NCBI GenBank assembly: GCA_963832745.1
Contig: CAWHVC010000004.1
Coordinates: forward strand, 160,001-224,000
Reading direction: 5' to 3'
Length of the DNA: 64,000 nt
Origin: Candidatus Bathyarchaeota archaeon
GTDB taxonomy: Archaea; Thermoproteota; Bathyarchaeia; Bathyarchaeales; Bathycorpusculaceae
Numbering within the stretch: the first letter of the stretch is position 1; each line of letters opens with the position of its first letter. The notes beneath the pieces were generated by a model. It saw only the letters and a list, made by a program, of their open reading frames with translations. It was not told where the DNA came from and made no database searches. A program made the translations under genes and the position numbers. Positions 5,693-46,716 of the stretch are shown piece by piece.

Positions 5693-6160
5693 TTGAGGCG
5701 TTTAGTTTTGGTTTTGGATTTAGGTTGGTTAATTAAAAAGGATCATGATGAGTATCGACGGTTTTTTGTTGAAATGGCGAAAACTGAACTGAAAGATGGT
5801 AAATACCGTGAAGTTGCTCTTTGTAATGTTATGCGGAAGATTTTGGCGCATCATGAAGCTGAAGAGGTCTCAGTTTTCCCCAAAATGCATCAGATTCCAG
5901 AGTTAAACAGGTTGGTTTTTGAGCTTGAAGTTGAACACGCGGACATGCGAAAACTTTTCGAGACCCTTCAAGGTGAACGTGCAGATACTGAAATTTGGAA
6001 GTACAAGCTTGCCTCAATCTTTGACATTATACATGCACATTGGCTTAAAGAAGAAGAGCAGTTAACGCCGTTTTGGCAGATGTTTTTTTCAGAGGCAGAA
6101 TGGGCGACTTTTTCAAAACAGTTTTCGGAAGCAACTGAAAACTATCTCAAAACCCATTAA
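5693..6160 (+). CDS. Hemerythrin (HHE) domain protein; true start may be TTG at 5714
   Basis: H...HxxxE (HHEAEE)...H (EHADM)...HxxxE (HWLKEE) pattern. Confidence 0.8.
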   Translation: MRRLVLVLDLGWLIKKDHDEYRRFFVEMAKTELKDGKYREVALCNVMRKILAHHEAEEVSVFPKMHQIPELNRLVFELEVEHADMRKLFETLQGERADTEIWKYKLASIFDIIHAHWLKEEEQLTPFWQMFFSEAEWATFSKQFSEATENYLKTH

Positions 6161-6574: not shown

Positions 6575-7996
6575 TTAGGTCGTTTGATTCCAAAAGAAAA
6601 CGTCGTCGTATTTGCCTGCCACAGGGTGTGCCGGGTCATCGTAGACAATGTCAAGTTTTAAACCGTACCGGTCAAGCCTGCTCTGAAGTTGCGTCCAGAT
6701 TTGCTGTGAAGTGCCGTTTGCATCCCAAAGTCCCCAAACCGTGTCGTCGGGTCTGCGCATTCCCCACCCGTAATTGTTTGGCAAAACCAGCGCCGCCTCC
6801 GCTTCAATGCCCCCATGGATTACCGAAGGGTTTTGGACAACGTCATTCCAGAAACGCTCCAATGCCTCAAAGTGCTCTTCTTTCAAGGTGCCGTATGGGC
6901 CCCTCATGTCTTCTGCGTAATTAAAAATGACAACGTATTGCGCGCCAGCTTCGTAAGACGTTTTCATCTGCTCAAACATCTCATTTCCGCCTGTAAGGTA
7001 AGGCGCGTGCGTGTACTTCCAAGTAATAATTGTACCCCAATCTTTACCCTGCAAGTTTGCCGCTCCCCGCACCAAACCGATTTCCTGAGCAACGGTATTG
7101 TTCCAGCCCAACTCCGCCAGCAAAGTGTCGTAACCTCCTTTGTAATCAAACCAGTAAAGCGCATAATCCGCCGTCAAGAAATTGGTAAATGTGAAATTTG
7201 AGCTTCGGTCTTTTGCACGGCTAATTAGGGTATTGCATTGATCGATGTAGCTGTTGGAAGTTTCATTGATGGTTTGTAAAGGGCGACTGCTCAATAATTC
7301 TTCATATGTCTGCGCGATATTTGGCCATCCATTGGGAAACGTTGGTGGTTCACCAAGTGGATAAATAGTTGTGGTTGTTGCATTAGGATAATAAGTAATC
7401 AAAGCAACGTATGTTTCAAAAGGAATCTCGGTGGAATTTCCAGGTAAACTTAGTGATACTTGAGCAATTATTTTTCCATCTGGAAAATACTGAAGGGTAG
7501 TGTTTTCATCAATATAATAGCCTGTGATTGAACGGTCCGCCATTTTTCTATAGGATGACTTATTGTCTTGGAAGAATGGCATTTCTCCGTCTAACATTTT
7601 TCCTGCTGGTTCATCGTTGAAGTATATGCCTGCTAACTTGTTGCCCCAGTGTCCATCATATGATTTAAGCCATTGCTCCATGTAATATGCGCTGTCGCTG
7701 CCAAAGTAAACCATAATGTCCAGTCCAGCGTTAATGGCGTAGTCGCCTATCTCCGTAACCGCTGTTTTGTCTTTCATCAACGTGCCTGATTGTAGCACAA
7801 ATAGGTTGGTATAGTTGGCCACTTTGTCGATTAATGCTTTGGCGTCTTGGGTGCTGTTTCCACAGTAGGTTACGCCCACATGGAACGGTTTTTTTTCTTT
7901 GACGCTTTCGCCCAAGCTTGTGTAGCTAATGTAAGCAATTAATCCTGCTAATAGTAGAAAAATAATCGCTGCTGAGGGTACAATTTTTCTTTTCAT
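6575..7996 (-). CDS. Membrane-anchored or secreted protein, tandem paralog 1 of 4 (possible glycoside hydrolase-like barrel)
   Basis: N-terminal TM/signal; shared motifs VGVTY, YTNLFVLQSG, GIYxxDEPxGK, DYALYW, RGAANLQGKDWG, PxNYGWGMR; start set at the ATG (MKRK) equivalent to paralog 2. Confidence 0.85.
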   Translation of the reverse strand: MKRKIVPSAAIIFLLLAGLIAYISYTSLGESVKEKKPFHVGVTYCGNSTQDAKALIDKVANYTNLFVLQSGTLMKDKTAVTEIGDYAINAGLDIMVYFGSDSAYYMEQWLKSYDGHWGNKLAGIYFNDEPAGKMLDGEMPFFQDNKSSYRKMADRSITGYYIDENTTLQYFPDGKIIAQVSLSLPGNSTEIPFETYVALITYYPNATTTTIYPLGEPPTFPNGWPNIAQTYEELLSSRPLQTINETSNSYIDQCNTLISRAKDRSSNFTFTNFLTADYALYWFDYKGGYDTLLAELGWNNTVAQEIGLVRGAANLQGKDWGTIITWKYTHAPYLTGGNEMFEQMKTSYEAGAQYVVIFNYAEDMRGPYGTLKEEHFEALERFWNDVVQNPSVIHGGIEAEAALVLPNNYGWGMRRPDDTVWGLWDANGTSQQIWTQLQSRLDRYGLKLDIVYDDPAHPVAGKYDDVFFWNQTT

Positions 7997-8003
7997 AGGC
8001 AAA

Positions 8004-8066
8004 CGCTTCTAAGATTGAGCATTTCACAAGTCGGGGTTTATTTATGTTTTCCAGAATCTGCCAGTT
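8004..8066. repeat. 63-bp exact direct repeat, copy A (upstream region of paralog 1)
   Basis: cgcttctaagattgagcatttcacaagtcggggtttatttatgttttccagaatctgccagtt, identical at 9644..9706. Confidence 0.92.
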
Positions 8067-8111
8067 AAGGGTAAAATTTTCAAGTGAGCAACGAAAAAGT
8101 GATCTGCTCTT

Positions 8112-9635
8112 TTATTCAAAAAAGTAGATGTTGGCATATTTGCCTGCTACAGGAAACGCTGGGTCGTCATAGACAATGTCTAGTTTTGTGCCGTATTGGT
8201 TCAGCTTGTTTTGTACTTGGTTCCAAATTTGGGTTGAAGTATCGTTTGATTCCCATATTCCCCAAATGATGTCGCTGGGGTTTCGCATGCCATAACCATA
8301 ATTTTTTGGTAAAACCAGTACAGCTTCAGCTTTAACGCATCCATAGGTGACCGCTGGGTTTTGGACTACCTCGTTCCAGAAACGTTCTAACGCCTGAAAA
8401 TGTTGCTCTTGTAGTGTACCGTAAGGCCCTGACATGTCTGCTGCATAATTGAATAACATAACGTATCGGGCTCCGTTTTCGTAAGAGGTTTTCATTTGTT
8501 CAAACAATTCGTCGCCGTCAGCAAGGTAGGGTGCATGGGTGTATTTCCATGTTAAGATTGTTCCCCAGTCTTTGCCCTGCAAATTGGCTGCCCCACGAAC
8601 TAAAGCGATTTCTTGGGTGACAGAATTGTTCCAGCCAAGTTCCCCAAGAACCATGTCGTATCCGCTCTTGCAATCCCACCAGTACAATCCATAATCAGCC
8701 GTAAAAACAGGGAATTCCCCTTTGCTTATGTTCCATTGATTCTTTAAATCGGCTACTGAGGCGCTGGTTTTGTTTACAAAGACTTCAGCGGCGCCGTCAC
8801 AGTCTGTTAGGGGGTTTTTGCTTGCCACTTGTTGATAAGTTTCTTCTTGGGCAATGCGGTTTGAGCCATTTTCCATTGTATAGAAATCATTTTTTAATGT
8901 TTCATCTGCTGAATCCCCTGCATTAATAGGAACATAGGAAAGACCGCCCGTGTACACTTTACTTGTTGAGTTTGTGATTGTTTCGCTTACTGTTATTGTA
9001 CCGTTTGGTTTGTATGTAGTCGTATTGGTGTTTCTTAACATGATCGGCATTGTTACTGATGAATTAGTTGGGTCTACACTGGAAGAAGTTTCTTCCACTC
9101 TTTGAACTACAATTGTGCCGTCAAGATAAAATGTTGCAACATACTTGTTTCCATCACGATAATTCACTAAGCCATTTTTATTTCTATCCAAGATTATTCC
9201 CCGCTCATTCGTGTAATAAATGTCTCCGTCAAGAAATTTACCTCCAGGTTCATCACCCAAATAGACGCCTGCAAACATGTCTCCCCACCGTTGCTTCGCT
9301 GTGCCTACCCATTCAGCCTTATCTGCAGAAGTTAAAACGTCAAAATAAGCAGCAAAATGCAGTCCTTTAGCAACAGCATAATCCCCTACCTCATTTACTG
9401 CTGTGGCATTATTTTTCAATACGCCTGACTGCAGGACAAACAGGTTAGTGTAGCTGGCAACTTTGTCGATTAGGGTTTTGGCGTCTTGGATGTTGTTTCC
9501 GCCGTAGGTTACGCCAACATAAAACGGTTTCTGCTGTTGGCTACTTTCACCTAAGCCTGTAAAACTGATGTATGCAATTAAACCTGCCAATAGTAGAAAA
9601 ATAATCACTGCTGAAAGCACAATTTTTCTTTTCAT
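8112..9635 (-). CDS. Tandem paralog 2 of 4
   Basis: Same conserved motifs as paralog 1; start at ATG AAA AGA. Confidence 0.85.
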   Translation of the reverse strand: MKRKIVLSAVIIFLLLAGLIAYISFTGLGESSQQQKPFYVGVTYGGNNIQDAKTLIDKVASYTNLFVLQSGVLKNNATAVNEVGDYAVAKGLHFAAYFDVLTSADKAEWVGTAKQRWGDMFAGVYLGDEPGGKFLDGDIYYTNERGIILDRNKNGLVNYRDGNKYVATFYLDGTIVVQRVEETSSSVDPTNSSVTMPIMLRNTNTTTYKPNGTITVSETITNSTSKVYTGGLSYVPINAGDSADETLKNDFYTMENGSNRIAQEETYQQVASKNPLTDCDGAAEVFVNKTSASVADLKNQWNISKGEFPVFTADYGLYWWDCKSGYDMVLGELGWNNSVTQEIALVRGAANLQGKDWGTILTWKYTHAPYLADGDELFEQMKTSYENGARYVMLFNYAADMSGPYGTLQEQHFQALERFWNEVVQNPAVTYGCVKAEAVLVLPKNYGYGMRNPSDIIWGIWESNDTSTQIWNQVQNKLNQYGTKLDIVYDDPAFPVAGKYANIYFFE

Positions 9636-9643
9636 GGGACAAT

Positions 9644-9706
9644 CGCTTCTAAGATTGAGCATTTCACAAGTCGGGGTTTATTTATGTTTTCCAGAATCTG
9701 CCAGTT
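9644..9706. repeat. 63-bp exact direct repeat, copy B (upstream region of paralog 2)
   Basis: Identical to 8004..8066, offset 1640 bp. Confidence 0.92.
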
Positions 9707-9742
9707 TAAGGTAAAATCTTCAGTGGAGCAAAGAAATAAGTG

Positions 9743-11239
9743 TTAAGTTATGTTCCAGAAGTAAATGTGTGAGTATTTGCCTGTTACAGGAAACGCTGGG
9801 TCATCATAAACTATGTCCAGTTTTATTCCGTATTGGTCAAGTTTGCTTTGTACTTGGTTCCAGATTTGGGTTGAAGTGGCGTTTGGTTCCCATATTCCCC
9901 AGATAACGTCGCTGGGGTTTCGCATGCCCCACCCGTAGTTTTCGGGCAAAACCAGCACTGCTTCCGCCTTATCGCTTCCGTGAATTTCTGCTGGGTTCTG
10001 GACAACTTCTTTCCAGAAGCGTTCGAGGGCTTGAAAATGCTCTTCCTGCAATGTACCGTAAGGTCCAGTCATATCTTCGGCATAATTGAATATAACAACA
10101 TAATCCGCTCCAGCCTTGTAGGAAGTTTTCATTTGGTCAAACATTTCAGCCCCATCAGTCAAATATGGCGCGTGAGTGTATTTCCAAGTGATTATTGTTC
10201 CCCAACTTTTTCCCTGCAAGTTGGCTGCTCCACGGGCCAAACTGATTTCTTGACTTACCGAATTGTTCCATGCAAGCTCAGCAAGAACCATGTCATAACC
10301 GCTCTGAAGGTCCCACCAGTAAAGTGCATAATCAGAAGTGAAAATCGGGAAAGACCTCCCCTTAAGGTTACGTTGCCTGATTAAACCATCTACAAAACCG
10401 CTGGTTTTGTCAACATAGAAGTTAGCCGCGGTGTTGTAGTCGCGTAAGGGGTTTTTGTCTTTCGCTTGTTGATAAGTTTCTAATTGAGCGATGATGTCTG
10501 AACCATTTTCCATTGTGTACCTACTGAAACTGACTATTTCCGAAGAAATGATGCCTATACCCCCTTTTGCTGTTTTTTTCTCGATCATTTCAAAAAAGGT
10601 TATTGTGCCGTCTGTCTTGTAGGTTGTCGAGTTGGTTACTACACTATAGGCGGCGATGAATGAGGGGTCGTTATTATTAGAAAACAATGTGGAACTAGTA
10701 GAGTTTGTTTTAGATACCGTTATTGTGCCATTTGGATAAAAACTTCTCGAAATATCAGTTTCATCTGTATTGACTGTGCCGTCTTGCCATTTTGTAACTG
10801 ACATATCTTCGCCTAAAACTAGCCAGGTAGTGTAACCGTCAAGCATTTTGCCTCCAGGTTCATCCTCATAATAGATTCCTGCAAACATTTTGCCCCACCG
10901 TTGCTCAGCAGCACTTATCCAGGTTGCATCTGAAATGCCGAAGGCTGAAGCAGCAGCGAAATGTAAACCTTTGGAGACTGCGTAATCGCCAATTTCGTTT
11001 ACGGCGGTATTGTTTCCTATTATTGTAAATCCTGATTGTACTACAAAGAGGTTGGTGTAGTTTGCTACTTTGTCTATTAGCAGTTTGGCGTCTTGCACAG
11101 TGTTTCCGCAGTAAGTTACGCCTACAAGGAAGGGTTTTTGCTCTTCGCCTTCACCGAAGTCTGTGTAGGCAACGAAGATTAGAGAGCTTACAAAGAGGAT
11201 GCAAATAATTGCTGATGAAAGAATTTCTTTTCGGGTCAC
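9743..11239 (-). CDS. Tandem paralog 3 of 4
   Basis: Same conserved motifs (GIYYEDEPGGKMLDG, SDYALYW, RGAANLQGKSWG). Confidence 0.85.
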   Translation of the reverse strand: MTRKEILSSAIICILFVSSLIFVAYTDFGEGEEQKPFLVGVTYCGNTVQDAKLLIDKVANYTNLFVVQSGFTIIGNNTAVNEIGDYAVSKGLHFAAASAFGISDATWISAAEQRWGKMFAGIYYEDEPGGKMLDGYTTWLVLGEDMSVTKWQDGTVNTDETDISRSFYPNGTITVSKTNSTSSTLFSNNNDPSFIAAYSVVTNSTTYKTDGTITFFEMIEKKTAKGGIGIISSEIVSFSRYTMENGSDIIAQLETYQQAKDKNPLRDYNTAANFYVDKTSGFVDGLIRQRNLKGRSFPIFTSDYALYWWDLQSGYDMVLAELAWNNSVSQEISLARGAANLQGKSWGTIITWKYTHAPYLTDGAEMFDQMKTSYKAGADYVVIFNYAEDMTGPYGTLQEEHFQALERFWKEVVQNPAEIHGSDKAEAVLVLPENYGWGMRNPSDVIWGIWEPNATSTQIWNQVQSKLDQYGIKLDIVYDDPAFPVTGKYSHIYFWNIT

Positions 11240-11328
11240 TGTGGTTCGCTTCTAAAGATAAGTGTTGTCTTGTTAAATAATTCTTTTCTATAAATCCCAT
11301 ATTTTTGGCAAAATAATGGAAAGGAAGG

Positions 11329-12900
11329 TTAAGTGTCATCCCAATAGTAAACATCAGCATACTTGCCTTCAACTGGATGGGCTTGGTCCTGATAGACTAT
11401 ATCTAGTTTAGTGCCATACTGCTCCAGTCTGTTTTGTAGCTGTGTCCATATTTGACTTGACGTAGCGTTTGGTTCCCATATTCCCCAAATGACGTCAGAT
11501 GGGTTACGCATCCCCCAGCCATAGTTGCAGGGTAAAACCAGTGTTGCTTCTGCTTTGATACCTCCCTGAATTACCTTAGGGTTTTGGACTACCTCGTTCC
11601 AAAAACGTTCTAATGCTTGAAAATGCTGTTCTTGCAGGGTTCCATATGGTCCTATGGCGTCTGCTGCATAGTTGAAAAGTATGACGTATTGGGCTCCGTT
11701 TTCATAGGAGGTTTTCATTTGGTTAAAAATTTCGTCACCGTCGGCAAGGTATGGAGCTTGAGTGTATTTCCATGTTAAGATTGTTCCCCAGTCTTTGCCT
11801 TGCAAATTGGCTGCTCCACGAACTAAAGCGATTTCTTGGGCAACAGTATTATTCCAGCCAAGTTCCGCAAGAACCATGTCATATCCGCTCTGGTAGTCCC
11901 ACCAGTAAAGACCATAATCGGCAGTAAAAATGGGAAAAGACCCTTGGCTCATATTTAATTGCAACTTTGAATTTGCTAATTTTGCTTTGGTTTGGTTTGT
12001 GAAGACGTTTGCGGCGCCGTTGCAGTCTGATATGGGGTTTTTGCTCATTGTTTGTTGGTAAGTTTCTTCTTGAGCAATACGCTTTGAGCCATTTTCCATT
12101 GTATAAAAGTCGTTATGTAATATTTCGAATGAATTTTCCCCAATTGGAATAGGCCAAATAATATGGTTCATACCATTTTCATCAGTTGAATTTGAATCTT
12201 GAGCTTTTTGGATAAAATTCTTGCCTGTCGAATTAGAAATTATTTCCTTTATTGTCATTGAACCATTTGGATCGTAAACAATCGTGTCGGCTGTAGTTAC
12301 TGTGTTCCATATTGTAATAGAAGAATTGTTTGGGTCAGTAATAGAGGTATCAATCGAGTTACTTCTCATTTTAATAATGGTGCCGTTTGGGTAAACATCA
12401 ACAGAAAATCCCGTATTGGGCTCATTGTAAGAGACTCTTCCATCTTCATTTTTTACAATAATGGAACTAGAATTTTCATAATTCAAGCAGATTGTGGTGC
12501 CATCAAGAAACTTTCCTGCTGGTTCATCATCATAATAGACTCCTGCAAACATGCTGCCCCACCGTTGCTCAGCAGTGCTTATCCATGTTGCATAAACAAC
12601 ATTGTAACTTGTAGTCGCAGCAAAGTGTAATCCTTTAGTTACTGCGTAATCCCCTATCTCGTTAATGGCTTGGTCGTTTTTAATTAGGGGTCCTGAATTG
12701 AGGACGAACAGGTTTGTGTAGTTGGAGACCTTGTCGATTAGGGTTTTAGCGTCTTGTACGTTGTTTCCGCCGTAGGTTACGCCTACAAGGAAGGGTTTTT
12801 GTTGTTCGCCTTCTCCAAAGTTTGCTTGACTGACAAATATTATTGAGCTTGCAAGGAGGATGCAAATGATGGCTGATGAAAGTGATTCTTTACGGTTCAA
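11329..12900 (-). CDS. Tandem paralog 4 of 4
   Basis: Same conserved motifs (GVYYDDEPAGKFLDG, ADYGLYW, RGAANLQGKDWG). Confidence 0.85.
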   Translation of the reverse strand: MNRKESLSSAIICILLASSIIFVSQANFGEGEQQKPFLVGVTYGGNNVQDAKTLIDKVSNYTNLFVLNSGPLIKNDQAINEIGDYAVTKGLHFAATTSYNVVYATWISTAEQRWGSMFAGVYYDDEPAGKFLDGTTICLNYENSSSIIVKNEDGRVSYNEPNTGFSVDVYPNGTIIKMRSNSIDTSITDPNNSSITIWNTVTTADTIVYDPNGSMTIKEIISNSTGKNFIQKAQDSNSTDENGMNHIIWPIPIGENSFEILHNDFYTMENGSKRIAQEETYQQTMSKNPISDCNGAANVFTNQTKAKLANSKLQLNMSQGSFPIFTADYGLYWWDYQSGYDMVLAELGWNNTVAQEIALVRGAANLQGKDWGTILTWKYTQAPYLADGDEIFNQMKTSYENGAQYVILFNYAADAIGPYGTLQEQHFQALERFWNEVVQNPKVIQGGIKAEATLVLPCNYGWGMRNPSDVIWGIWEPNATSSQIWTQLQNRLEQYGTKLDIVYQDQAHPVEGKYADVYYWDDT

Positions 12901-14966: not shown

Positions 14967-15356
14967 TTGCTCAGTTTTAAATGCCAAAAGTTGATTCCGT
15001 TGAACAACACACGCTCAAGATTACCTTCCATATTAAACAACAGTTTTCAGCCAAAAAGCGCAGAGTACGCTTTTGAGTTGTTCCTTTGCGGTATGACCCA
15101 AAAGTCCTTGCAGACAATAAAAGCCGTTAAAACCGTTCTGGACCAACAATTGCCAAACTACAAACTTGAAGTTATTGACATATTCAAAAACCCCCGACGA
15201 ACCTGTCAAGAGCAAATCATGACTACGCCAACATTGATCAAAAAATCTCCGTTGCCCACGCGTAAAATTTCTGGAGATATAACAGGTAAGGACCGGATAC
15301 TTTGCGGTTTAAACATAAACCAAAAAAGGCAAGCGTTAGGAGCAGAAGAACCATGA
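14967..15356 (+). CDS. kaiB: KaiB-family protein (start uncertain)
   Basis: LFLCGMTQKS...YKLEVIDIFKNP...QIMTTPTLIKKSPLPTRKISGD matches the KaiB fold. Confidence 0.85.
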   Translation: MLSFKCQKLIPLNNTRSRLPSILNNSFQPKSAEYAFELFLCGMTQKSLQTIKAVKTVLDQQLPNYKLEVIDIFKNPRRTCQEQIMTTPTLIKKSPLPTRKISGDITGKDRILCGLNINQKRQALGAEEP

Positions 15357-15856
15357 CTGAAACAAAAGAAATCCACAAGTTGAAACTGGAGATTGAGCAT
15401 TTGCAGGGGCGACTGCAAGAGTTAGAGGAAACCATGGCCAGTGTTTGCGGTGGTACGGCGGATGCAATAATTGTTTCAACAGTTGACGGTGAGAAAGTTT
15501 TCACCTTGATGACTGAGGAGCAGCCTTACCGGCTATTTGTGGAGCAGATGCTTCAGGGTGCAGTTATGCTTTCAGATGATGATACCATTCTTTACTGTAA
15601 CAAAGCCTTCGCGGGAATGGTGAAAGATAAAGCTGAAGTAGTAGTGGGCAAAAAACTCCAAACTTACGTATCCCAAAACCTGCATTGTGAGCTAAACATT
15701 TTTCTTACAAAAAATAGGCAAGAAAAAGTCCCTCAACAACAGAATTTACTTTTGCAAACAACAGACGGTTCCGCAGTTGACGTGCAGGTTTCAATTAGCA
15801 GGTTTGAGCAAAACGCTTTCAAAGGTTCCTGCCTGGTTTTTGTAAGTTGCCGCTAA
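15353..15856 (+). CDS. Coiled-coil plus single PAS domain protein (kinase-less)
   Basis: ATGA overlap with the kaiB stop; RLQELEETM...DAIIV...VFTL...PYRLFVEQM...ILYCNKAF. Confidence 0.8.
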   Translation: MTETKEIHKLKLEIEHLQGRLQELEETMASVCGGTADAIIVSTVDGEKVFTLMTEEQPYRLFVEQMLQGAVMLSDDDTILYCNKAFAGMVKDKAEVVVGKKLQTYVSQNLHCELNIFLTKNRQEKVPQQQNLLLQTTDGSAVDVQVSISRFEQNAFKGSCLVFVSCR

Positions 15857-36926: not shown

Positions 36927-38531
36927 GTGCTAAACATGAACGCTGATGGCAAAAGATTCCGAGATGCAATAATCGAGTTTTTACCTGATGCCACGTTTGT
37001 CATCGATTTGGACGGTAAAGTCATTGCTTGGAACAGCGCTATGGAAATGCTAACCAGCATTCCCCGAAGCGACATGCTTGGAAAAAGCAATTACGAATAT
37101 GCCCTTCCATTCTACAAAGAACGCAGACCCATGCTGGCAAACCTAATTTTCTTGCCTCAAGTTGACTTTGAAACGAAATATGACTCTATAGAAAGAATCG
37201 GCGACGCGCTTGTTGTAGAAATTTATTTACCCGATTTTAGACCAGGCGGCGTATACCTCTGGGCTAAAGCCAGTCCACTCTATGATTCACAGGGCGAAAT
37301 CGTCGGTGCCATCGAAACAATCAGAGACATAACAGACCGGAAACGAGCAGAAGAAGAAATTATTCGATCACGCCGCAGTCTTGCAGACATTCTCAGCTTC
37401 CTTCCCGATGCCACGTTTGTCATCGATTTGGACGGTAAGGTCATTGCTTGGAACAGCGCCATGGAAATGTTAACCAGTATACCTGCAGACTCCATGCTTG
37501 GAAAAGGTGACTATGAGTACGCAATCCCATTCTATAAGAAGCGGCGACCAATGTTGGCGGACCTAGTTTTCATGCCTGAAACAGAATTAAAAGAGAAATA
37601 TAACAATGTTGAACGCAACATGGACACTCTTGTTGTCGATGTTTTTATTCCAGATTTTCGGGTGGGCGGTGCCTACTTCTGGGCTAAGGCAAGTCCCTTG
37701 TATGACCCTAACAGTGGAAATGTAGTGGGCGCAATTGAAACAATCCGGGACATAACCGAACGCCGAGAACTTGAAGGACGGCTTGCCCGTTCAAATGCCG
37801 AGCTACAGATTGCTGCAGAAATACAGAAAAGCTTTCTACCCGAGGCGATTCCTCAAATTCCAGGTTTTGATGTCGCAGCCCGCACCGTTATGGCAAAGGA
37901 AGTTGGAGGAGACTTCTTTGACGTAATCCCATATGAAGTTATGACTCTTGATAAGGGCATGCATGGCATGCTCGTCGCGGATGTATCGGGAAAAGGTGTT
38001 CCAGCAGCCCTCTTTATGGCGTTGTCAAGGATTGTTGTTCGAGTGAACGCTCTTTGGCATCATGACCCCGCGAAAGTAATTTACAGTTCCAACAACACCA
38101 TAACCCAAGATTCAAAATCCGGCATGTTCGTAACCCTCTTTTTCGGACTGCTAAACGAGACAAACCGGTCCCTTACCTATGTTAACGCTGGACACAACCC
38201 GCCGCTAGTATTCCGGAGCCATGATGGGTCAGTTGAGAAGCTCATGCCTACAGGAATCGTGCTTGGGGCAGTCGAGAATTTGGAGTATAAGTCCAGAAGC
38301 GTAAAGATTGCGGAAGGCGACGTTGTTGTCATGTTTACCGATGGCGTTACGGAATCAATCAATTCGCAGAGTGAACTGTTTGGAGAAAAGCGGCTTATAG
38401 CGGTTATTCAGAAAAACGCTGGCCTTTCGGCTCAGGGGATTCTTGAGCAGATTTTGGTTGAAGTAAACGCGTTTGCGGGAGATATGCCGCAGGCAGATGA
38501 TATCACGTTACTTATTATCAAGGGGACCTGA
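36927..38531 (+). CDS. PAS-PAS-PP2C (SpoIIE/RsbU-like) phosphatase
   Basis: Two PAS/PAC repeats; EVGGDFFD, ADVSGKGVPAA, NAGHNPP, FTDGVTE, DDIT motifs. Confidence 0.93.
   Translation: MLNMNADGKRFRDAIIEFLPDATFVIDLDGKVIAWNSAMEMLTSIPRSDMLGKSNYEYALPFYKERRPMLANLIFLPQVDFETKYDSIERIGDALVVEIYLPDFRPGGVYLWAKASPLYDSQGEIVGAIETIRDITDRKRAEEEIIRSRRSLADILSFLPDATFVIDLDGKVIAWNSAMEMLTSIPADSMLGKGDYEYAIPFYKKRRPMLADLVFMPETELKEKYNNVERNMDTLVVDVFIPDFRVGGAYFWAKASPLYDPNSGNVVGAIETIRDITERRELEGRLARSNAELQIAAEIQKSFLPEAIPQIPGFDVAARTVMAKEVGGDFFDVIPYEVMTLDKGMHGMLVADVSGKGVPAALFMALSRIVVRVNALWHHDPAKVIYSSNNTITQDSKSGMFVTLFFGLLNETNRSLTYVNAGHNPPLVFRSHDGSVEKLMPTGIVLGAVENLEYKSRSVKIAEGDVVVMFTDGVTESINSQSELFGEKRLIAVIQKNAGLSAQGILEQILVEVNAFAGDMPQADDITLLIIKGT
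36987..37480 (+). repeat. Intragenic duplication of the PAS-coding segment
   Basis: 36987..37060 and 37407..37480 match at 70/74 nt; offset 420 nt. Confidence 0.85.
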
Positions 38532-38579
38532 GCCTGTTATGTCAGAAGAAAACCCTAAAAACCCTGGAAGGAGACAACC

Positions 38580-39005
38580 GTGAAAAGCTTTGAGCTTACC
38601 GTGGAGAGCAGGCTGGAAAGTCTTCCTAAGATAAGCGCGTTTATTGATGAAGCAATGCAGCACTATAACGTACAAAACGTAAAAGAAGTGTATGCAGTCC
38701 AGTTGTCGGTTGATGAAGCCTGCACTAACATAATTAAACATGCATACGCGAACAAAAGCGATGGAAAAATTGTTATTCGCTGCACGCTGTGTAAGGCACC
38801 TGACAAGTTTGTAGTGGAAATAATGGATTGGGGTTGCCCTTTTGACCCAACAACTCTGCCGACGCCTAATACGAAAAGCGGTTTGGATGAACGAAAGGAA
38901 GGCGGTTTGGGCATCTTTTTTATAAGAAAATTCATGGATGAAGTTAGCTATCGTAGAAGTGGCGATATGAATTTATTAACAATCGCCAAGTATATAAAAA
39001 AATAA
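38580..39005 (+). CDS. RsbW/SpoIIAB-like Ser/Thr kinase (anti-sigma fold)
   Basis: DEACTNIIKHAY, DWGCPFDP, GGLGIFFIRKFMDEV motifs. Confidence 0.92.
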   Translation: MKSFELTVESRLESLPKISAFIDEAMQHYNVQNVKEVYAVQLSVDEACTNIIKHAYANKSDGKIVIRCTLCKAPDKFVVEIMDWGCPFDPTTLPTPNTKSGLDERKEGGLGIFFIRKFMDEVSYRRSGDMNLLTIAKYIKK

Positions 39006-39023
39006 TTACTGGAGAAAGAATAC

Positions 39024-39359
39024 ATGGAAACAAGGACAGAAGGAAATACAACCATCGTAGTAATGGTTCCCAGATTCGACGCTTATACTGCCAATGACGT
39101 TGATACAGCATTAAAAGAGTTACTTGCGAAGGGCACCAAAAAAATAATCTGTGATTTCTCCCAAACCGATTATGTAGCCAGTGCTGGCCTTAGGGTTCTT
39201 TTGTCTTCAGCTAAAACCCTGCAAAGGCAAGGCGGCCAAATTGTTTTATGCTCAATGAAACCTTACGTTCATGAAGTTTTTGAAATATCTGGGTTTACTC
39301 AGATTTTCAAAGTTTTTGAATCTAAAGAAGAAGCCTCTAAAAGCCTCAACCAACCATAA
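39024..39359 (+). CDS. STAS-domain RsbV/SpoIIAA-like antagonist
   Basis: DYVASAGLRVL phospho-site loop; EVFEISGF. Confidence 0.92.
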   Translation: METRTEGNTTIVVMVPRFDAYTANDVDTALKELLAKGTKKIICDFSQTDYVASAGLRVLLSSAKTLQRQGGQIVLCSMKPYVHEVFEISGFTQIFKVFESKEEASKSLNQP

Positions 39360-40788: not shown

Positions 40789-42681
40789 ATGGAGTATGAA
40801 ATCTTTCTGCTTCTTGCAGCCATCTTGCTAATCTTCTTAGATATAGCAGTTTTTTCAAGAACTAAATTTTCTTCTAACCGCTTAAATTATGCGGGCTTTA
40901 TAGCGGCTGCATTTGCTTTCTTGTTGATATTAAGCTCTTACCTGTTGCTTTTGATTGCTTTTGTGAATAACGACTTTTCATTTGTCGGCGTCTACTCTTT
41001 TAGCTCATCAAACTTGTCCCTGTTATCAAAAATTTACGCCAGCTGGGCAGGCGCAGGTGGTTCAATGCTTTTACTAACCATAATTTTAAGCACGTTCTAT
41101 TTTGGGCTCAAAATTGCATCCTTAAAGAACACAGAGAAATTTAAAACACTAACTTGTCAGGTAATGGGTTTTGTTGTTATTGTCTTTACATTGGTATGTT
41201 TACTGAGAAACCCCTTTGAACGACTTCCAGTAGCCGCTGTTGAAGGTTTTGGGCTTAACCCTCAACTGCAGAGTGTATGGATGGCTATTCATCCTCCAAT
41301 TGTCTTTTCAGCTTACGCTTTTGTTGTACTTGCGTTTGCTTTGACAATTGCAAGTTTAAAAACCAACAAAGACATTGATACTTCAAAACTTTTCAAAGTA
41401 TCAACTTATGCTTCTTGGATGCTGCTTACTGTTGGAATAGCTTTAGGCGGTGTTTGGGCGTATGAAGTTTTAGGTTGGGGTGGATATTGGGCTTGGGATC
41501 CAGTAGAAACAGCATCACTATTACCCTGGCTTATTTTAACAGGTTACTTTATTGTAAAATCTATTACAAAAAATCTAAGTCTTACTCGGGAAACACTGAT
41601 TATGCTTACCTTTGCCAGTCTTGTTTTCCTAAGTGCCCTAACCCGTGGAGGGTTAACTCAATCTGTTCACTCGTATGCTGCCTCAGCAATTGGTCCAATA
41701 ATGCTACTGTTTGCTGTAGGTATGATGGGTTACTTTTTTTACTTGGCAAAAAGCAAAAGGAAAAGTTTCTTCAAATTAACGGTTGACAGGAAATCTTTGA
41801 CTTCCCGGTCATCTTTTGTTGGGTTTTGGGCGTTGATTTTTATTTCAATTGTGTGCTTGGTTGGGTTAGCTGTTCCGGATTTTGCTTACAGTTACTGGAC
41901 TTATCCATTTGTCTTGTTGTTTGTTATATCGTTGGTTGGTTTCAGTCTTAACGATAAAATGCATTATGCACGCCAATTCATAATCGTAACCGTAGGGTTG
42001 GTTGCTGGAGTTATTTTTACCTTGTTGGGTTTTGCTTCAGTAAATGTGCTTGTCACTTTAACTGTTCCTTTAATGGTTATAACCTTAGGTGCATTGTTCT
42101 ACAAGCTCGCAACTTCGATAAGGCGACGAACTCTTCTTTGGCAATACCTTTTCGGTATAGCAGTTGTCGTGCTGCTTTTAGGCGTATTTGTAAGTTCAGG
42201 AGCCAAAACTTCTACAACACTTCAAAATGTTAACGTTAACTCTCCAGTACATGCTTCGGACTTAACGGTAACTTTAAGCGATTTGCATGTAAGCAACAGC
42301 ACCACAAGGGTTTACAATACTCAAGTCGAAGGCGTTTTTCCTGAATATTCAATTGTTACTGCAGATGTTTCTGTTCAGGGCTCTGGTTTAAATTATAACG
42401 GTAACTTGCAAGCGGCTTTCTATCCGAATTATGGATTAGTAATTAACCCCCTAATTATCTCCACAATCACAGGTGACATTTACATTCATTTTGAATACAC
42501 TGATTCACTTTACAACTCTTTAACTCAGAATTTGATTGGACAAAGTGTACTTCCCGACAATTTAGCATTAACTATCCAAAATAATCCATTGATTTACTTG
42601 GTTTGGGCAGGTGTGATTCTCATGTTGTTGGCATTGACTGCTGAGTTTATACTTGGAAATAAACAAACAATTAGCCTTTAA
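40789..42681 (+). CDS. ccmF: Cytochrome c heme lyase CcmF-like
   Basis: GLNPQLQ, IHPP, WWD domain WAYEVLGWGGYWAWDPVETASL, SVHSY. Confidence 0.88.
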   Translation: MEYEIFLLLAAILLIFLDIAVFSRTKFSSNRLNYAGFIAAAFAFLLILSSYLLLLIAFVNNDFSFVGVYSFSSSNLSLLSKIYASWAGAGGSMLLLTIILSTFYFGLKIASLKNTEKFKTLTCQVMGFVVIVFTLVCLLRNPFERLPVAAVEGFGLNPQLQSVWMAIHPPIVFSAYAFVVLAFALTIASLKTNKDIDTSKLFKVSTYASWMLLTVGIALGGVWAYEVLGWGGYWAWDPVETASLLPWLILTGYFIVKSITKNLSLTRETLIMLTFASLVFLSALTRGGLTQSVHSYAASAIGPIMLLFAVGMMGYFFYLAKSKRKSFFKLTVDRKSLTSRSSFVGFWALIFISIVCLVGLAVPDFAYSYWTYPFVLLFVISLVGFSLNDKMHYARQFIIVTVGLVAGVIFTLLGFASVNVLVTLTVPLMVITLGALFYKLATSIRRRTLLWQYLFGIAVVVLLLGVFVSSGAKTSTTLQNVNVNSPVHASDLTVTLSDLHVSNSTTRVYNTQVEGVFPEYSIVTADVSVQGSGLNYNGNLQAAFYPNYGLVINPLIISTITGDIYIHFEYTDSLYNSLTQNLIGQSVLPDNLALTIQNNPLIYLVWAGVILMLLALTAEFILGNKQTISL

Positions 42682-42687
42682 TTTCTT

Positions 42688-43134
42688 TTAACCAAAGCTT
42701 AAGTGAAGCGCATAATACAGCAGCCCAAGTCCTAGAGATAACAACCAGATTGCCAATATTTTCCACATTAGCTTTTTTCTTGGAGCACAAAATTGTGTAC
42801 TGCTTGATTCATTTATTGCCCAAACCCAAACAAGCCATACGCCCAAAATTAATCCGACAGCTCCAATTACTCCATGAATTACGCCCATAGCAGCGACTAT
42901 ATTGAATGCGTTAAATGTTTCTGCGAAAGCAGAAACAAATGATGGCCCCATGTGCGAAAGTAACAGTAAAGCTGTGATTATCATAACAATAATCATTGAG
43001 TTGCCATGCCATACCGGTTTCCGTTTTTTTAATAGGTACAAGCTTAACCCTATCAAAGCTAAAGCAACAAGAAAGATGACAACGTTTGTTTCTGCCATCC
43101 ATTCGTGAACTACTTCAAATGAAACCATAAGCAA
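42688..43134 (-). CDS. Four-TM membrane protein with intramembrane histidines (DUF420-like)
   Basis: Hydrophobic helices with WHG, SHM and IHG; lies between ccmF and ccoN. Confidence 0.65.
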   Translation of the reverse strand: MLMVSFEVVHEWMAETNVVIFLVALALIGLSLYLLKKRKPVWHGNSMIIVMIITALLLLSHMGPSFVSAFAETFNAFNIVAAMGVIHGVIGAVGLILGVWLVWVWAINESSSTQFCAPRKKLMWKILAIWLLSLGLGLLYYALHLSFG

Positions 43135-43266
43135 CCCCTTTCTGCTGCTTTACCTTGTTAAATCCAGTTAATTTACTTTAAATTAGTCTTTGGCAATAGG
43201 TGCATTACTGAAAAGTTTTTTATAGTAAGTTAGCGTTTGGTAATTAAATCTATTTTGTGGTAAGTT

Positions 43267-44697
43267 ATGTCTCAACCCCAAGACGCTAATGTAGTGGTTC
43301 CTGAAAAAATCGATTACAAAACTTCAGATTCAGTATCTAAATACTGGCTGTACTCTGCTATACTATGGTTTCCAATTTTTGCCACTTTTGGCTTCATAAT
43401 GGCAATCAAATTTTTTTATCCTACATTTCTAATCGATTCAGCTTTTGATACATTTGGAAGAATCCGGCCAGCACACGTTAACGGGTTGCTTTTTGGCTTT
43501 TTATCTTCAGGCCTTATCGGCGCCATGTATTACGTTGTTCCCCGATTAAGCCACGTATCTCTGTATAAGCCACAGATTGGAAAAATATCTGCTGTATTGT
43601 GGAATGTTGCGGTTTTAACTGGTGTGCTTCTCATTATGGGTGGGGATACTCAGGCTAGAGAATACGCCGAGATGCCTTGGATAATTGATGTTCTTGTAGT
43701 CATTACATTAATTCTAATAGGAATCACAATAATTGGAACAATACTGAAACGGAAAGAACGTAAACTTTATGTGAGTTTATGGTTTTTCGCGGCTATTTTC
43801 CTTTGGTTCCCCATAGTCTATTTCATAGGAAACGTAATGTGGAATCCTCCAACAGGTGCACTTTATGGCTTAACAGACGCCATCGTCAACTGGTTCTACG
43901 GACACAACGTGTTAGGCTTATGGTTTACTCCTTTCGGGTTAGCTTTATGGTATTACTTTATACCTAAACTTACTAAAAGAGCATTATACAGCGTAACATT
44001 ATCGTTGATTAGCTTCTTTGCATTAGCGTTTTTCTACACTGGAGTTGGCGGTCATCACTTGCTTCAATCCTCAATTCCTGAATGGCTAAAAACAATCGCT
44101 GTTGCAACAAGCGGTCTTATGATGCTTTCAGTTCTAACTTTCGCCACTAACATAGGCATGACAATGCGTGGCGCTTGGCATTCATTTTTAAGCAATGTAC
44201 CTTTAAGGTTCATTCTTTTCGGTTTTATCTGCTACATATTTGTCTCTATTCAAGGAACCTTTCAAGCACTTCGCGATATGAACCTCTACTTGCATTACTC
44301 TCAATGGACTGTAATGCATTCACATTTGGCATTATACGCATCATTCGGTATTACCATAATGGGCATAATGTTCTACGTTATCCCAAAAATTTCCGGAAAA
44401 CAGCTTTACAGCAAAAAATTGATGGATGTAACTTGGTGGGTTTCACTGCTTGGTTTTGTAATTTTCATGATGGGCATGTTACTGGCTGGATTAGTAGCTA
44501 ACGCAGGTTGGTTTACAAGTCAAACAATAGCGCAAGTTTTGCCACTGCTCCCTCCTTACTTTATTATACGAGCAATAGGCGGCGGAATAGTTGTTGTATC
44601 TGCTTTCCTGTTCGCTATTAACATTATAATGACAATTTTGTCCAAACCAACAGGTGAAGAGTTGACTAAACAAACAATGGTGGTGCAGCAGGCATGA
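43267..44697 (+). CDS. ccoN: cbb3-type (C-family) cytochrome c oxidase subunit I
   Basis: FGRIRPAHVN, REYAEMPW, WFYGHNVLG, YTGVGGHHL, WTVMHSH: all six His ligands plus the helix VII Tyr. Confidence 0.92.
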   Translation: MSQPQDANVVVPEKIDYKTSDSVSKYWLYSAILWFPIFATFGFIMAIKFFYPTFLIDSAFDTFGRIRPAHVNGLLFGFLSSGLIGAMYYVVPRLSHVSLYKPQIGKISAVLWNVAVLTGVLLIMGGDTQAREYAEMPWIIDVLVVITLILIGITIIGTILKRKERKLYVSLWFFAAIFLWFPIVYFIGNVMWNPPTGALYGLTDAIVNWFYGHNVLGLWFTPFGLALWYYFIPKLTKRALYSVTLSLISFFALAFFYTGVGGHHLLQSSIPEWLKTIAVATSGLMMLSVLTFATNIGMTMRGAWHSFLSNVPLRFILFGFICYIFVSIQGTFQALRDMNLYLHYSQWTVMHSHLALYASFGITIMGIMFYVIPKISGKQLYSKKLMDVTWWVSLLGFVIFMMGMLLAGLVANAGWFTSQTIAQVLPLLPPYFIIRAIGGGIVVVSAFLFAINIIMTILSKPTGEELTKQTMVVQQA

Positions 44698-46280
44698 ATG
44701 GCTTCGAGAAAAAACTAGAAAAGAACTTTGAAAGAATAGAAAATGCTGTAACTAATCAAACAAAACATCGTAAAAAACTAAGCTTCAAAAATCTTTTCCC
44801 GTTAGTAGCTGGTGGGGTGGCTGTCTTCCTGCTTATGGTCAGCATGGTTGTAGTTGCTCCTTACATGTTCCTCTTAGATGTCCCCCCAACCGACACTGCA
44901 CACGTTTACACCACGCAAGAAGCTGAAGGCAGAAGCCTTTACATGAGTTTAGGTTGCTTCTACTGCCATTCTCAACAAGTTCGAGCCTCTGACTGGGGAC
45001 TAGGCAATGTTTCTCAAGAAGGCGACTACGTGTATGACAGCCCGAACTCTTTAGGAACAGAAAGAACTGGTCCTGACCTTGCTCAAATAGGCGGTATGCG
45101 TCCAACTGCTTGGCATCAAATGCATTATAGAGATCCAAGAAGCGTATCTCCCGGTTCAATAATGCCCAACTTTGAATTCCTAACAGACCAACAAATCGAT
45201 TCCTTAATCACCTACATACAGAACCTCGGTCAAGAAAACCTACAAGTTCAACAATCAATAACTAACGGCTCCGCCTATCACCCGGTAGTTCCTGAAGAAT
45301 ACATAAACGCAACCAACCAGTTTGAACCAATGTATCTAACCGTTTTATCACAATATGATGCAACAAATGATGTTTACAATGGCAATGCCTCACTTGCAGA
45401 TCAATGGGCTGCGATTTATGACGTTGCCAAAGCCGATTACACCCAACGATGCTTACCTTGCCATGGCTGCTCTGGAAATGCTCAGGGCCCATACGCTCGG
45501 CATGTGGTAACTCAACCCGCTAACCTGCATGAAAGAATCGCTACTTTTCCAGGTGATAACTATCATATCTGGCGAGTGAGTGAAGGTGTGCCTGGAACTG
45601 CAATGCCTGCATGGAAGCTTTCTCTAAACAGCACCGAGATTCAGTTAATCGCAATTTACGAAATGAGCTTTGTTTTTGGTTCAGCAAGAACTTTTCCAGG
45701 AAGCACCTCAGACGATGAAGGCGACAATTACGCATTGACTGTTTTGAATACGCCGCCAATAAGCGGTACTCAGCAAGATTTCCAGTCAGGACAAGACATT
45801 TTTAATTTATACTGCGCTCAATGTCACGGTTCAGATGGTCAAGGTGACGGTCCAGCATCCATCAATGTTCCTGGCGGATATATCAGCCCTGCTCCAGCCA
45901 ACTTTACAGAGTCAGGAAGCGACTTCCAATATTATGGCAGATACGTCTGGAAAGTAAAAGAAGGAGTAGAAACGACCAACATGCCACCATGGAAATACGC
46001 CTTATCAGACAACGAAATCTACCAAGCAGTCTTATACGTTCAAAGCTTTTCAACAGCACAAGATTACAATTCAAAATGGGCACCACAATACACAGACCCC
46101 TATGCAAGAAACCTCAAGATTAACGCTGCATCAAGTAGCTTCACAAGTATAGAAACTAACCCTGTTGCCGTAATAGCGGTATTGTCCGCTGCTGTGCTTT
46201 GGAATCTGCAGGTAAATCGCCAAATTTTACGAACCAAAAATTTAACCTGTTTTTTACGTTTTAGGAGGAACCTGAAGTGA
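44694..46280 (+). CDS. ccoO: CcoO fused to two extra class I cytochrome c domains (tri-heme)
   Basis: GCFYCHSQQVR, GTERTGPDL, PGSIMP (CcoO); CLPCH...TAMP; CAQCH...NMPP. Confidence 0.88.
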   Translation: MNGFEKKLEKNFERIENAVTNQTKHRKKLSFKNLFPLVAGGVAVFLLMVSMVVVAPYMFLLDVPPTDTAHVYTTQEAEGRSLYMSLGCFYCHSQQVRASDWGLGNVSQEGDYVYDSPNSLGTERTGPDLAQIGGMRPTAWHQMHYRDPRSVSPGSIMPNFEFLTDQQIDSLITYIQNLGQENLQVQQSITNGSAYHPVVPEEYINATNQFEPMYLTVLSQYDATNDVYNGNASLADQWAAIYDVAKADYTQRCLPCHGCSGNAQGPYARHVVTQPANLHERIATFPGDNYHIWRVSEGVPGTAMPAWKLSLNSTEIQLIAIYEMSFVFGSARTFPGSTSDDEGDNYALTVLNTPPISGTQQDFQSGQDIFNLYCAQCHGSDGQGDGPASINVPGGYISPAPANFTESGSDFQYYGRYVWKVKEGVETTNMPPWKYALSDNEIYQAVLYVQSFSTAQDYNSKWAPQYTDPYARNLKINAASSSFTSIETNPVAVIAVLSAAVLWNLQVNRQILRTKNLTCFLRFRRNLK

Positions 46281-46429
46281 ATATTGACATGTTGATATAT
46301 ACTATAGGCGCTTTTCTCATTACTCTAATAACGGCTGGTTTTGTAGTTTGGGCTTTCAAGACTAAACAGTTTGAAGCCAACGACTTTTTACGTTACATGC
46401 CACTTGAGGAGGACGCAGACGAAGAATGA
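46277..46429 (+). CDS. ccoS: CcoS/FixS-like oxidase assembly peptide, 50 aa (absent from the ORF track)
   Basis: Translated by hand: MNIDMLIYTIGAFLITLITAGFVVWAFKTKQFEANDFLRYMPLEEDADEE; WAxKxxQF motif; GGAGG upstream; overlaps both neighbours by 4 nt. Confidence 0.72.
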   Translation: MNIDMLIYTIGAFLITLITAGFVVWAFKTKQFEANDFLRYMPLEEDADEE

Positions 46430-46716
46430 CGTGGCCATTTTACTTAACTGCATATATTGTCTATCTTGATCCAACTTACGTTTACTTTACGTTATTCTTA
46501 ATTGCAGCAGTTTCAATTGTCATCTACTTAGTTGTCAGAAGTTCGAACGATTTCTCAGTTGAAGAGACCGAAAAAAACTCTGAAGATTTTGCCGGAGAAG
46601 TTCGTGACTCAAACGGTCCAGTGACCAAATGGCTCTGGGTAGTTTATGCTGGATTAATAATTTGGGCATTAGCTTATTTGGTTCAGCATTGGAGCGAATT
46701 TGCGGTTTTCCCATAA
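46426..46716 (+). CDS. Small membrane protein resembling the CcoP N-terminal domain
   Basis: TM helix, then EDFAGEVRDSNGPVTKWLW, then TM helix; similar to the CcoP (H)EYDGIxEYDNPLPxWW motif. Confidence 0.6.
   Translation: MTWPFYLTAYIVYLDPTYVYFTLFLIAAVSIVIYLVVRSSNDFSVEETEKNSEDFAGEVRDSNGPVTKWLWVVYAGLIIWALAYLVQHWSEFAVFP

Follow-up and report, generated by a model that had tools for sequence, protein, structure and literature searches.

The DNA examined in this study is a window of 64,000 nucleotides (nt) from a Candidatus Bathyarchaeota archaeon (assembly GCA_963832745.1, contig CAWHVC010000004.1, positions 160,001 to 224,000; all window coordinates below are counted from its first letter). Positions 40789-46716 of this window hold six genes that are predicted to encode a C-family (cbb3-type) heme-copper oxidase and maturation-type proteins. 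When compared with the list of open reading frames (ORFs), all features were found at the coordinates given in an earlier interpretation made from the DNA letters alone (hereafter, the sequence-only reading). The features are as follows, with protein lengths in amino acids (aa):

40789..42681, plus strand: CcmF/NrfE-family cytochrome c heme lyase-like membrane protein, 630 aa (Pfam and NCBIfam matches)
42688..43134, minus strand: DUF420/CtaM-like four-helix membrane protein, 148 aa (weak Pfam match; divergent from ccoN)
43135..43266, no strand: AT-rich divergent intergenic region with a candidate archaeal promoter (TTTATA approximately 45 nt before the ccoN ATG)
43267..44697, plus strand: CcoN, C-family heme-copper oxidase catalytic subunit I, 476 aa (COX1 match)
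44694..46280, plus strand: CcoO fused to a di-heme CcoP-like module, giving a three-heme protein (CcoO/P), 528 aa (FixO and cytochrome-c domain matches)
46277..46429, plus strand: CcoS/CcoQ-like single-helix peptide, 50 aa (FixS/FixQ matches of its orthologues)
46426..46716, plus strand: two-helix membrane protein, weakly CcoP-N-terminal-like, 96 aa (FixP_N match)

The last four genes run from ccoN through the CcoO/P and 50-aa genes to the 96-aa gene with 4-base overlaps at each junction (ATGA, GTGA and ATGA), in agreement with the translational coupling that had been proposed for them. The spacer between the DUF420-like gene and ccoN is AT-rich and 132 nt long, and its TTTATA box may act as an archaeal promoter. 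TATA-like A/T boxes recur upstream of ccoN in the relatives; alignment of these upstream regions gave a mean column identity of just 38%, with A/T-rich boxes and no clear conserved operator. A scan for sigma-70 promoters and terminators, which is unsuited to archaea, performed as on shuffled sequences (16 versus 15.9 expected).

CcoN matches Pfam COX1 at 1.8e-78, and its best solved relatives are the CcoN chains of 9g6b and 3mk7 (approximately 6e-67), while the c-type nitric oxide (NO) reductase (cNOR) 3o0r follows at 5.5e-9. Relatives were drawn from a one-genome-per-species scan in which the best 80 of 173 were kept, and the CcoN alignment contains 79 rows, namely the window, 74 of these relatives and four annotated plasmid references that include the NorB of a norCBQD cluster; the 75 non-reference rows are thus the window and its relatives. 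The six His ligands that the sequence-only reading had recognized are all present, with window residues H70, H213, H263, H264, H351 and H353 aligning to Pseudomonas stutzeri H60, H207, H257, H258, H345 and H347, which we take to be the ligands of heme b, heme b3 and CuB. These six residues, Tyr257 and the Ca-site Glu132 are found in 75 of 75 non-reference rows. Tyr257, the helix VII Tyr already pointed out from the sequence, aligns to P. stutzeri Y251, the cross-link Tyr six residues before the HH pair, a position occupied by Ser in the NorB reference. Five further columns (window T221, Y229, S246, N295 and Y323) correspond to what we assume to be the residues of the single K_C channel in P. 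stutzeri (T215, Y223, S240, N289 and Y317; a literature search for K_C channel residues returned nothing usable), and these are conserved in all 75 rows, apart from S246 (74 of 75), and hydrophobic in NorB. After the first CuB/FeB His the window reads H-N-V-L-G, that is, the C-family HNxxG motif rather than the HxxxE of NO reductases (NORs), as had been read, and it lacks Glu at the two places where the NorB reference has one, presumably the NOR ligands of the H-x-x-x-E motif.

Judged by sequence, CcoN is classified as a C-family (cbb3-type) protein and not as an NO reductase. NOR identity was considered and ruled out by the ligands, the Tyr, the polar channel columns and a tree in which NorB falls far outside; the phylogenetic classification that the sequence-only reading had called for groups CcoN with the cbb3 references, not with NO reductases. 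In the relevant passages of PMC11214002, the cross-link Tyr is described as required for four-electron O2 chemistry, whereas NOR families lack this Tyr and carry out two-electron chemistry that does not require one. The universal retention of the cross-link Tyr argues that O2 reduction may be the activity under selection.

The CcoO/P protein begins with one N-terminal membrane helix and contains a FixO domain (3e-35, residues 42-177) followed by two Cytochrome_CBB3 stretches in Pfam; among solved structures, CcoO chains were recovered with its N-terminal part (2e-23) and a CcoP heme domain with its last domain (2e-5). The tri-heme character previously assigned to it is borne out by CxxCH motifs at residues 88, 253 and 374, each followed by a conserved Met (Met157, Met304 and Met430), and exactly three such CxxCH and Met combinations occur in 40 of 40 rows from Bathyarchaeia and the sister clades. 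The CcoO mono-heme c subunit stands in place of the CuA subunit, with Cys88-x-x-Cys-His and Met157 retained.

The two small proteins that follow are harder to place by individual scores. The window copy of the 50-aa peptide falls below the cut-offs for both FixQ (19.5 bits, cut-off 29) and FixS (14.1 bits, cut-off 23.1), but its identification as CcoS-like is supported through its Bathyarchaeia orthologues, 10 of 12 of which match FixS (best 2.6e-8) and nine of 12 FixQ at E<=0.1, and through an hhalign probability of 98.1% against sister-clade ORFs that pass the FixS cut-off. The 96-aa protein had been described as resembling the CcoP N-terminus, a likeness that receives weak support from FixP_N (20 bits, 5.6e-4, cut-off 24.9); two homologues in Methanoperedens relatives score 23.5 and 26.0 bits, the latter (L039; loci are cited by L numbers) just above the cut-off. 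A profile search of 1.84 billion representatives returned 91 clusters, 90 of which are stand-alone proteins of 50-152 aa, and no full-length CcoP (approximately 300 aa). Therefore, the 96-aa protein constitutes its own small family that accompanies this oxidase subfamily.

Two maturation-type genes precede ccoN. The heme lyase reported beside the oxidase is confirmed by a Cytochrom_C_asm match (7.3e-30) and a WWD motif; its NCBIfam nrfE/CcmF score (175.7 bits) is below the cut-off of 569. The WWD motif (W230-L248), His168, His294 and His567 are invariant across 12 Bathyarchaeia orthologues, and the gene adjoins the oxidase genes in every Bathyarchaeia locus long enough to include that position. 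In one of these loci (L007, 3875-7405), the CcmF-like frame continues into an amino-acid permease domain as a single ORF of 1176 aa, which may reflect a gene fusion, loss of the stop codon or an error in sequencing. The DUF420-like protein matches the full length of the DUF420 profile at 21.8 bits (E=2.4e-4), below the cut-off of 30.5, while nine of 14 orthologues match at E<=0.1 (best 4.4e-6) and some relatives carry the source name 'YozB (DUF420 family)'. Its four invariant His residues (His43, His61, His87 and His144) lie within helices. The gene is found in 15 of 16 Bathyarchaeia loci, the exception (L022) starting inside ccoN, and it occupies another position in the cluster in L006 and L036. 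Compared with solved structures, the DUF420-like profile returned only chance-level matches to G-protein-coupled receptors (E approximately 0.6) and no solved relative.

In Bacillus, passages of PMC13344008 and PMC8239418 describe DUF420/CtaM as needed for active aa3/caa3 heme-copper oxidases, with a proposed role in copper handling, and suggest that DUF420 proteins are kin of the heme-binding bundle of heme A synthase. The window protein resembles CtaM of Bacillus and Staphylococcus as a four-helix membrane protein with a genetic tie to a heme-copper oxidase; however, CtaM serves A-family aa3/caa3 oxidases, as far as PMC13344008 covers them, while the partner in the window would be C-family, and the DUF420 score is below the Pfam cut-off. 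Together, the CcoS-like peptide, the DUF420/CtaM-like protein and the CcmF-like lyase may render the cassette largely self-contained for maturation. The statement of the sequence-only reading that the window has no bc1, alternative complex III (ACIII) or ccoGHI holds, and is extended by the finding of no Pfam match to any of these among the 60 larger window ORFs scanned (hand-picked from ORFs >=100 aa), but the presence of these three maturation-type genes partly offsets the absence of ccoGHI.

The cluster belongs to a Bathyarchaeia host and did not arise through misassembly. The 16 closest CcoN proteins (74-89% identity) come from 15 genomes labelled Bathyarchaeota or Bathyarchaeia and one labelled 'uncultured archaeon', and in the CcoN tree the Bathyarchaeia form one clade with support of 100/100. 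The six-gene set is complete in 12 of these 16 loci, and the remaining four, truncated at contig ends, retain the genes for which there is room. The loci include a closed chromosome of 2.94 Mb (L043) and contigs of 1.5 and 2.5 Mb, while the window's own contig measures 267,603 bp. A related contig of 26,963 bp appears to hold CcoN (95% identity) together with aRF1 (81%), the two matches being linked only by identical contig size. Chimeric assembly, which the sequence-only reading had raised against itself, is ruled out by the synteny in 16 genomes and by the contig sizes. In the window, archaeal informational genes flank the cluster on both sides (Rpr2, S19e, L31e, eIF6, prefoldin, an SRP54-type GTPase, aRF1 and MetRS), and of the top 120 relatives found for the adjacent aRF1, those with NCBI names are all Bathyarchaeia bar one labelled Zixibacteria. 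The contig context read earlier was also recovered, with a Hox-like NAD-[NiFe] hydrogenase, IOR, HdrC/B-like genes and a hemerythrin in addition to S19e, L31e, eIF6, Rpr2 and aRF1. The genes around the cluster vary from genome to genome and have an archaeal character (TrmB/MEDS regulators, V-type ATPase, heliorhodopsin, desulfoferrodoxin), and the GC content of the cluster (0.38-0.43) lies inside the range of the window.

The proportion of nonsynonymous differences (pN) between CcoN orthologues is 0.11-0.19, versus a saturated synonymous proportion (pS) of 0.72-0.83, and across the six genes pN is <=0.42 and pS is saturated at 0.65-0.85, with one short-gene outlier above 1. Orthologues that are 74-89% identical with saturated synonymous sites imply a long residence in the lineage. 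The synteny, the archaeal flanks, the saturated pS with low pN and the unremarkable GC content therefore indicate that the cluster is old, vertically kept within the subclade and under selection. One CcoN departs from its orthologues: in L045 (8001-9419, on a 2.47-Mb contig), the alignment of the 472-aa ORF with the window protein covers just residues 1-407, and its divergent C-terminus may reflect a frameshift.

Outside the Bathyarchaeia, the next relatives of CcoN (47-57% identity) come from genomes labelled Dehalococcoidia, Clostridia, Syntrophales, Thermoleophilia and Methanoperedens and from one metagenome-assembled genome (MAG) labelled Methanolobus; the Clostridia include a Desulfosporosinus record without a MAG label. 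Of the 30 loci in this group (L012-L042 and L060), 28 encode CcoN, CcoO and the di-heme module together in one ORF of 879-956 aa, and the remaining two are truncated at contig ends. These fused single-ORF oxidases resemble the window in having three CxxCH motifs, a Gln at the column of P. stutzeri E323, and, downstream, both a FixS-like peptide and a homologue of the 96-aa protein; the peptide follows in six of six sister-clade loci examined and the 96-aa homologue in 26 of 30. They differ in that N and O/P are one ORF and in having no CcmF-like or DUF420-like neighbour by tblastn. The N-terminal extension of Bathyarchaeia CcoO/P (approximately 30 aa) was observed to align to the linker of the single-ORF fusions. 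A second set of clusters, of the Anaerolineae/Actinomycetota type (L046-L080), shares with the window a separate CcoN (44-48% identity), the same ligands and the same Gln, but its subunit II is larger (639-667 aa) and has five CxxCH motifs (nine of nine examined, L046-L073), and no 96-aa homologue was found by tblastn. The sequence-only reading had considered the cluster its strongest candidate for an undescribed system, a claim that does not stand, as this is a large subfamily common to many anaerobic or facultative bacteria and Methanoperedens, for which NCBIfam already has fused-form models (PRK14485 and PRK14486) and whose members JGI annotates as cbb3 subunits.

Compared to canonical CcoNOQP oxidases (P. 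stutzeri 3mk7/5djq, Rhodobacter 6xkw and the Paracoccus ccoS-ccoNOQP cluster, L083), the window has the same CcoN fold, metal ligands, cross-link Tyr, Ca-site Glu and channel positions, as well as a CcoO mono-heme domain, a di-heme CcoP-like module and small peptides resembling CcoS and CcoQ. It differs in that its CcoN is only about 28-36% identical to proteobacterial CcoN and has Gln instead of Glu323, the di-heme module is on the C-terminus of CcoO and not on CcoP, the CcoP-like N-terminal helices form a separate 96-aa gene, ccoGHI genes are lacking, scores are below the NCBIfam equivalog cut-offs and the host is archaeal. The cNOR enzymes (NorCB; Chelatococcus L082, PDB 3o0r) share with the window the superfamily branch and a c-type cytochrome partner, but NorB has Ser at the Tyr column (L082), hydrophobic channel columns and Glu after the first CuB/FeB His.

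It is probable that the cluster was acquired laterally, since its nearest relatives are the fused forms in Dehalococcoidia, Clostridia, Syntrophales and Methanoperedens. In a careful 53-row tree, with groups that were named after a tree had been viewed, the Bathyarchaeia are sister to the bacterial fused clade (99/97) and the constraint that all fused forms make up one clade is rejected (p-AU 0.015). In a quick 79-row tree that includes long-branch references, the tree under this constraint gains 11.8 log-likelihood units (p 0.76). How the Bathyarchaeia, Methanoperedens and the bacterial fused clade branch relative to one another thus varies by data set, and the direction of transfer is therefore not oriented. 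Within the fused group, the CcoN of the Methanolobus-labelled MAG (L013) and that of a Gudongella-labelled Bacillota MAG (L020) are nearest neighbours on short branches (100/100). The flanks of L013 hold a PGF-CTERM protein, which fits an archaeal context, and the L020 contig is 4.4 kb; the latter contig may be mis-binned, or the transfer may be recent.

The interpretation that we consider probable is that the window contains a genuine, chromosomally encoded and selectively maintained C-family cassette that was probably acquired laterally within a pool shared with anaerobic bacteria and Methanoperedens and that reduces trace O2, which on these sequence comparisons is the most likely function. 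The gene content, family, ligand and channel conservation, synteny, purifying selection and archaeal host are established by the comparisons above; O2 as the substrate, the direction of electron flow, the maturation roles and the physiological role are inferred. In the proposed mechanism, donor electrons would enter the three c-type hemes of the CcoO-CcoP fusion at the outer membrane face and would pass to the low-spin heme b and then to the heme b3-CuB site of CcoN, where O2 would be reduced to water. Protons would enter via the single conserved K_C-type channel, so that the reaction should at least separate charge. The CcmF-like lyase would attach the c hemes, and the CcoS-like peptide and the DUF420/CtaM-like protein may assist in heme and copper loading. 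An otherwise fermentative, O2-sensitive cell could in this way consume trace O2 for protection and possibly for some energy.

Several observations weigh against this interpretation. No bc1, ACIII or other donor c-type cytochrome was seen in the window, where CcoO/P is the sole credible CxxCH protein, and no heme-biosynthesis or other ccm genes were seen there. The position of P. stutzeri E323, which we take to hydrogen-bond the proximal His of heme b3, is Gln in 75 of 75 non-reference rows (window Gln329). Gln is also present at this column in the non-canonical references from Sinorhizobium meliloti and Ralstonia; only the canonical Paracoccus CcoN and 3mk7 have Glu there. CcoN scores 275.8 bits against the NCBIfam ccoN equivalog TIGR00780, whose cut-off is 583.15, a shortfall that points to a divergent subfamily. 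O2-sensitive enzymes (IOR, [NiFe] hydrogenase and Hdr-like) are encoded on the same contig, the nearest relatives belong mostly to anaerobic lineages, and no characterised enzyme of this subfamily was found in the literature. In addition, the heme-copper and bd oxidases of obligate anaerobes are usually interpreted as serving detoxification, according to passages of PMC8170396, and passages of PMC11214002 place NO reduction in vitro within reach of cbb3 enzymes.

A separate observation concerns the Gln column. On S. meliloti pSymA (L081, 3971-7071), a cbb3-like pair distinct from fixNOQP includes a 'subunit II' of 554 aa and carries Gln in place of E323, and it adjoins a TauE/SafE protein and a P-type ATPase. 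The Gln-type subfamily hence occurs in proteobacteria too.

The best-surviving alternative, which we hold as a tentative possibility and the less likely one, is true microaerobic respiration, in which the oxidase would end a membrane electron-transport chain and allow growth at low O2 with full energy conservation. The retention of the proton-channel positions in 74-75 of 75 rows and the strong purifying selection on all six genes speak for it, and in L007 and L045 the neighbourhood of the cluster includes a UbiX/UbiD pair and UbiA-family prenyltransferases, but the UbiD/UbiX matches score equally as aromatic-acid decarboxylases. A microoxic lifestyle of Bathy-6 has also been proposed in print, in passages of PMC7110647, PMC10908009 and PMC12694404. 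On the other hand, no quinol:cytochrome c oxidoreductase or donor cytochrome was seen among the window ORFs scanned, and the O2-sensitive enzymes share the contig.

An enzyme that chiefly reduces NO or another small oxidant instead of O2 is improbable. Relatives do occur in Methanoperedens, which we take to be a nitrate reducer, and the Glu-to-Gln change is located near heme b3, but the cross-link Tyr absent from NOR families is kept in 75 of 75 rows, the window is without Glu at the two Glu positions of NorB after the first CuB/FeB His, and CcoN groups with the cbb3 references, apart from NorB. Passages of PMC11214002 that report NO reduction by C-family enzymes in vitro fit this alternative as well. 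Still less credence can be given to a silent or decaying relic of lateral transfer that is functionless at present, which the lack of a donor in the window might suggest, as the reading frames are all intact, the ligands are invariant, pN is far below pS in the six genes and the gene order is held across deeply diverged species. A bacterial fragment misjoined to archaeal DNA during assembly or binning would suit the mostly bacterial distribution of C-family oxidases and the bacterial origin of the nearest relatives outside Bathyarchaeia, but its probability is negligible given the same cluster in 16 Bathyarchaeia genomes (on a closed chromosome and Mb-size contigs with differing archaeal neighbours), archaeal informational genes on both sides, no GC anomaly, and orthologues 74-89% identical with saturated synonymous sites.

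The surroundings of the cassette include further genes that were recorded in the window and in related loci. Approximately 2 kb downstream of the cassette in L043 (13459-15517) lie genes for a heliorhodopsin (5.5e-93), a fasciclin-domain protein and a SOUL heme-binding protein, and a desulfoferrodoxin gene lies near the cluster in L036. The desulfoferrodoxin, heliorhodopsin and SOUL genes of these two loci fit exposure to O2 and light, and the heliorhodopsin neighbourhood recalls the rhodopsin-bearing Bathy-6 lineage described in passages of PMC7110647. Immediately ahead of a GltD-like oxidoreductase gene and the cassette, the window encodes on the plus strand (36927-39359) a PAS-PAS-SpoIIE (PP2C) phosphatase, an RsbW-like HATPase_c_2 kinase and a STAS protein, which constitute a bacterial-style partner-switching module; sensors of the PAS, GAF or PocR type are likewise encoded beside the cassette in L043 (2835-5129) and L045 (13159-15555). 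Farther away are a hemerythrin-domain protein (5693-6160), a KaiB-domain protein followed by a PAS-domain protein (14967-15856), and four tandem paralogues on the minus strand (6575-12900) of 475-523 aa with 49-62% mutual identity, each with an N-terminal hydrophobic anchor and none with a Pfam match at E<=1e-3.

Bathyarchaeia are abundant in sediment and soil and are usually regarded as strict anaerobes. A full-text literature search, which left subscription literature outside its scope, returned no attribution of a cbb3 or C-family oxidase to Bathyarchaeia in the text portions it yielded, and where cbb3 and Bathyarchaeia were mentioned together, cbb3 referred to bacteria in the texts examined. 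In the corresponding sections of their article, the only cytochrome c oxidases that Hou et al. report are those of the soil genus Houtuousia, which they liken to those of Sulfolobus (PMC10321748), while the microoxic lifestyle idea of Pan et al. for Bathy-6 is based, in the passages concerned, on pyruvate oxidase (poxL) and SOD genes and not on an oxidase (PMC7110647); a 2025 review repeats both the Houtuousia and the Bathy-6 points in its relevant passages (PMC12694404). Murali et al. describe C-family enzymes as sparsely distributed in Archaea, again in the passages concerned (PMC11214002). The supplementary genome table of that study, which gives C-family counts per GTDB species, has C=1 in its row for a Methanoperedens species; it names Bathyarchaeia 127 times, and neither of the two Bathyarchaeia rows checked has a C-family entry.

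Against this background, the cassette is a well-supported archaeal addition to a known kind of enzyme, within a widespread subfamily, and it adds a well-sampled archaeal clade to the C-family record in Archaea, described as sparse in the above passages of PMC11214002. It also points to a subfamily widespread in supposed anaerobes that is marked by Gln as the partner of the proximal His, by three or five c hemes and by N-O-P fusions. The cassette makes the use or removal of O2 by Bathyarchaeia directly testable and offers a specific molecular target, which can be traced along O2 gradients at the transcript and proteome level, can guide microoxic enrichment and can be expressed for enzymology. 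A more speculative proposal, for which we would claim no better than a minority chance, is that a subclade of Bathyarchaeia, likely of the soil or sediment Bathy-6 type with heliorhodopsin, gains energy by respiring very low O2 through the laterally acquired and self-contained cbb3 cassette, with CtaM-like and CcmF-like maturation replacing CcoGHI. If this were true, C-family respiration would be operating in a major 'anaerobic' archaeal group, which would help to explain the dominance of that group in microoxic paddy soils.

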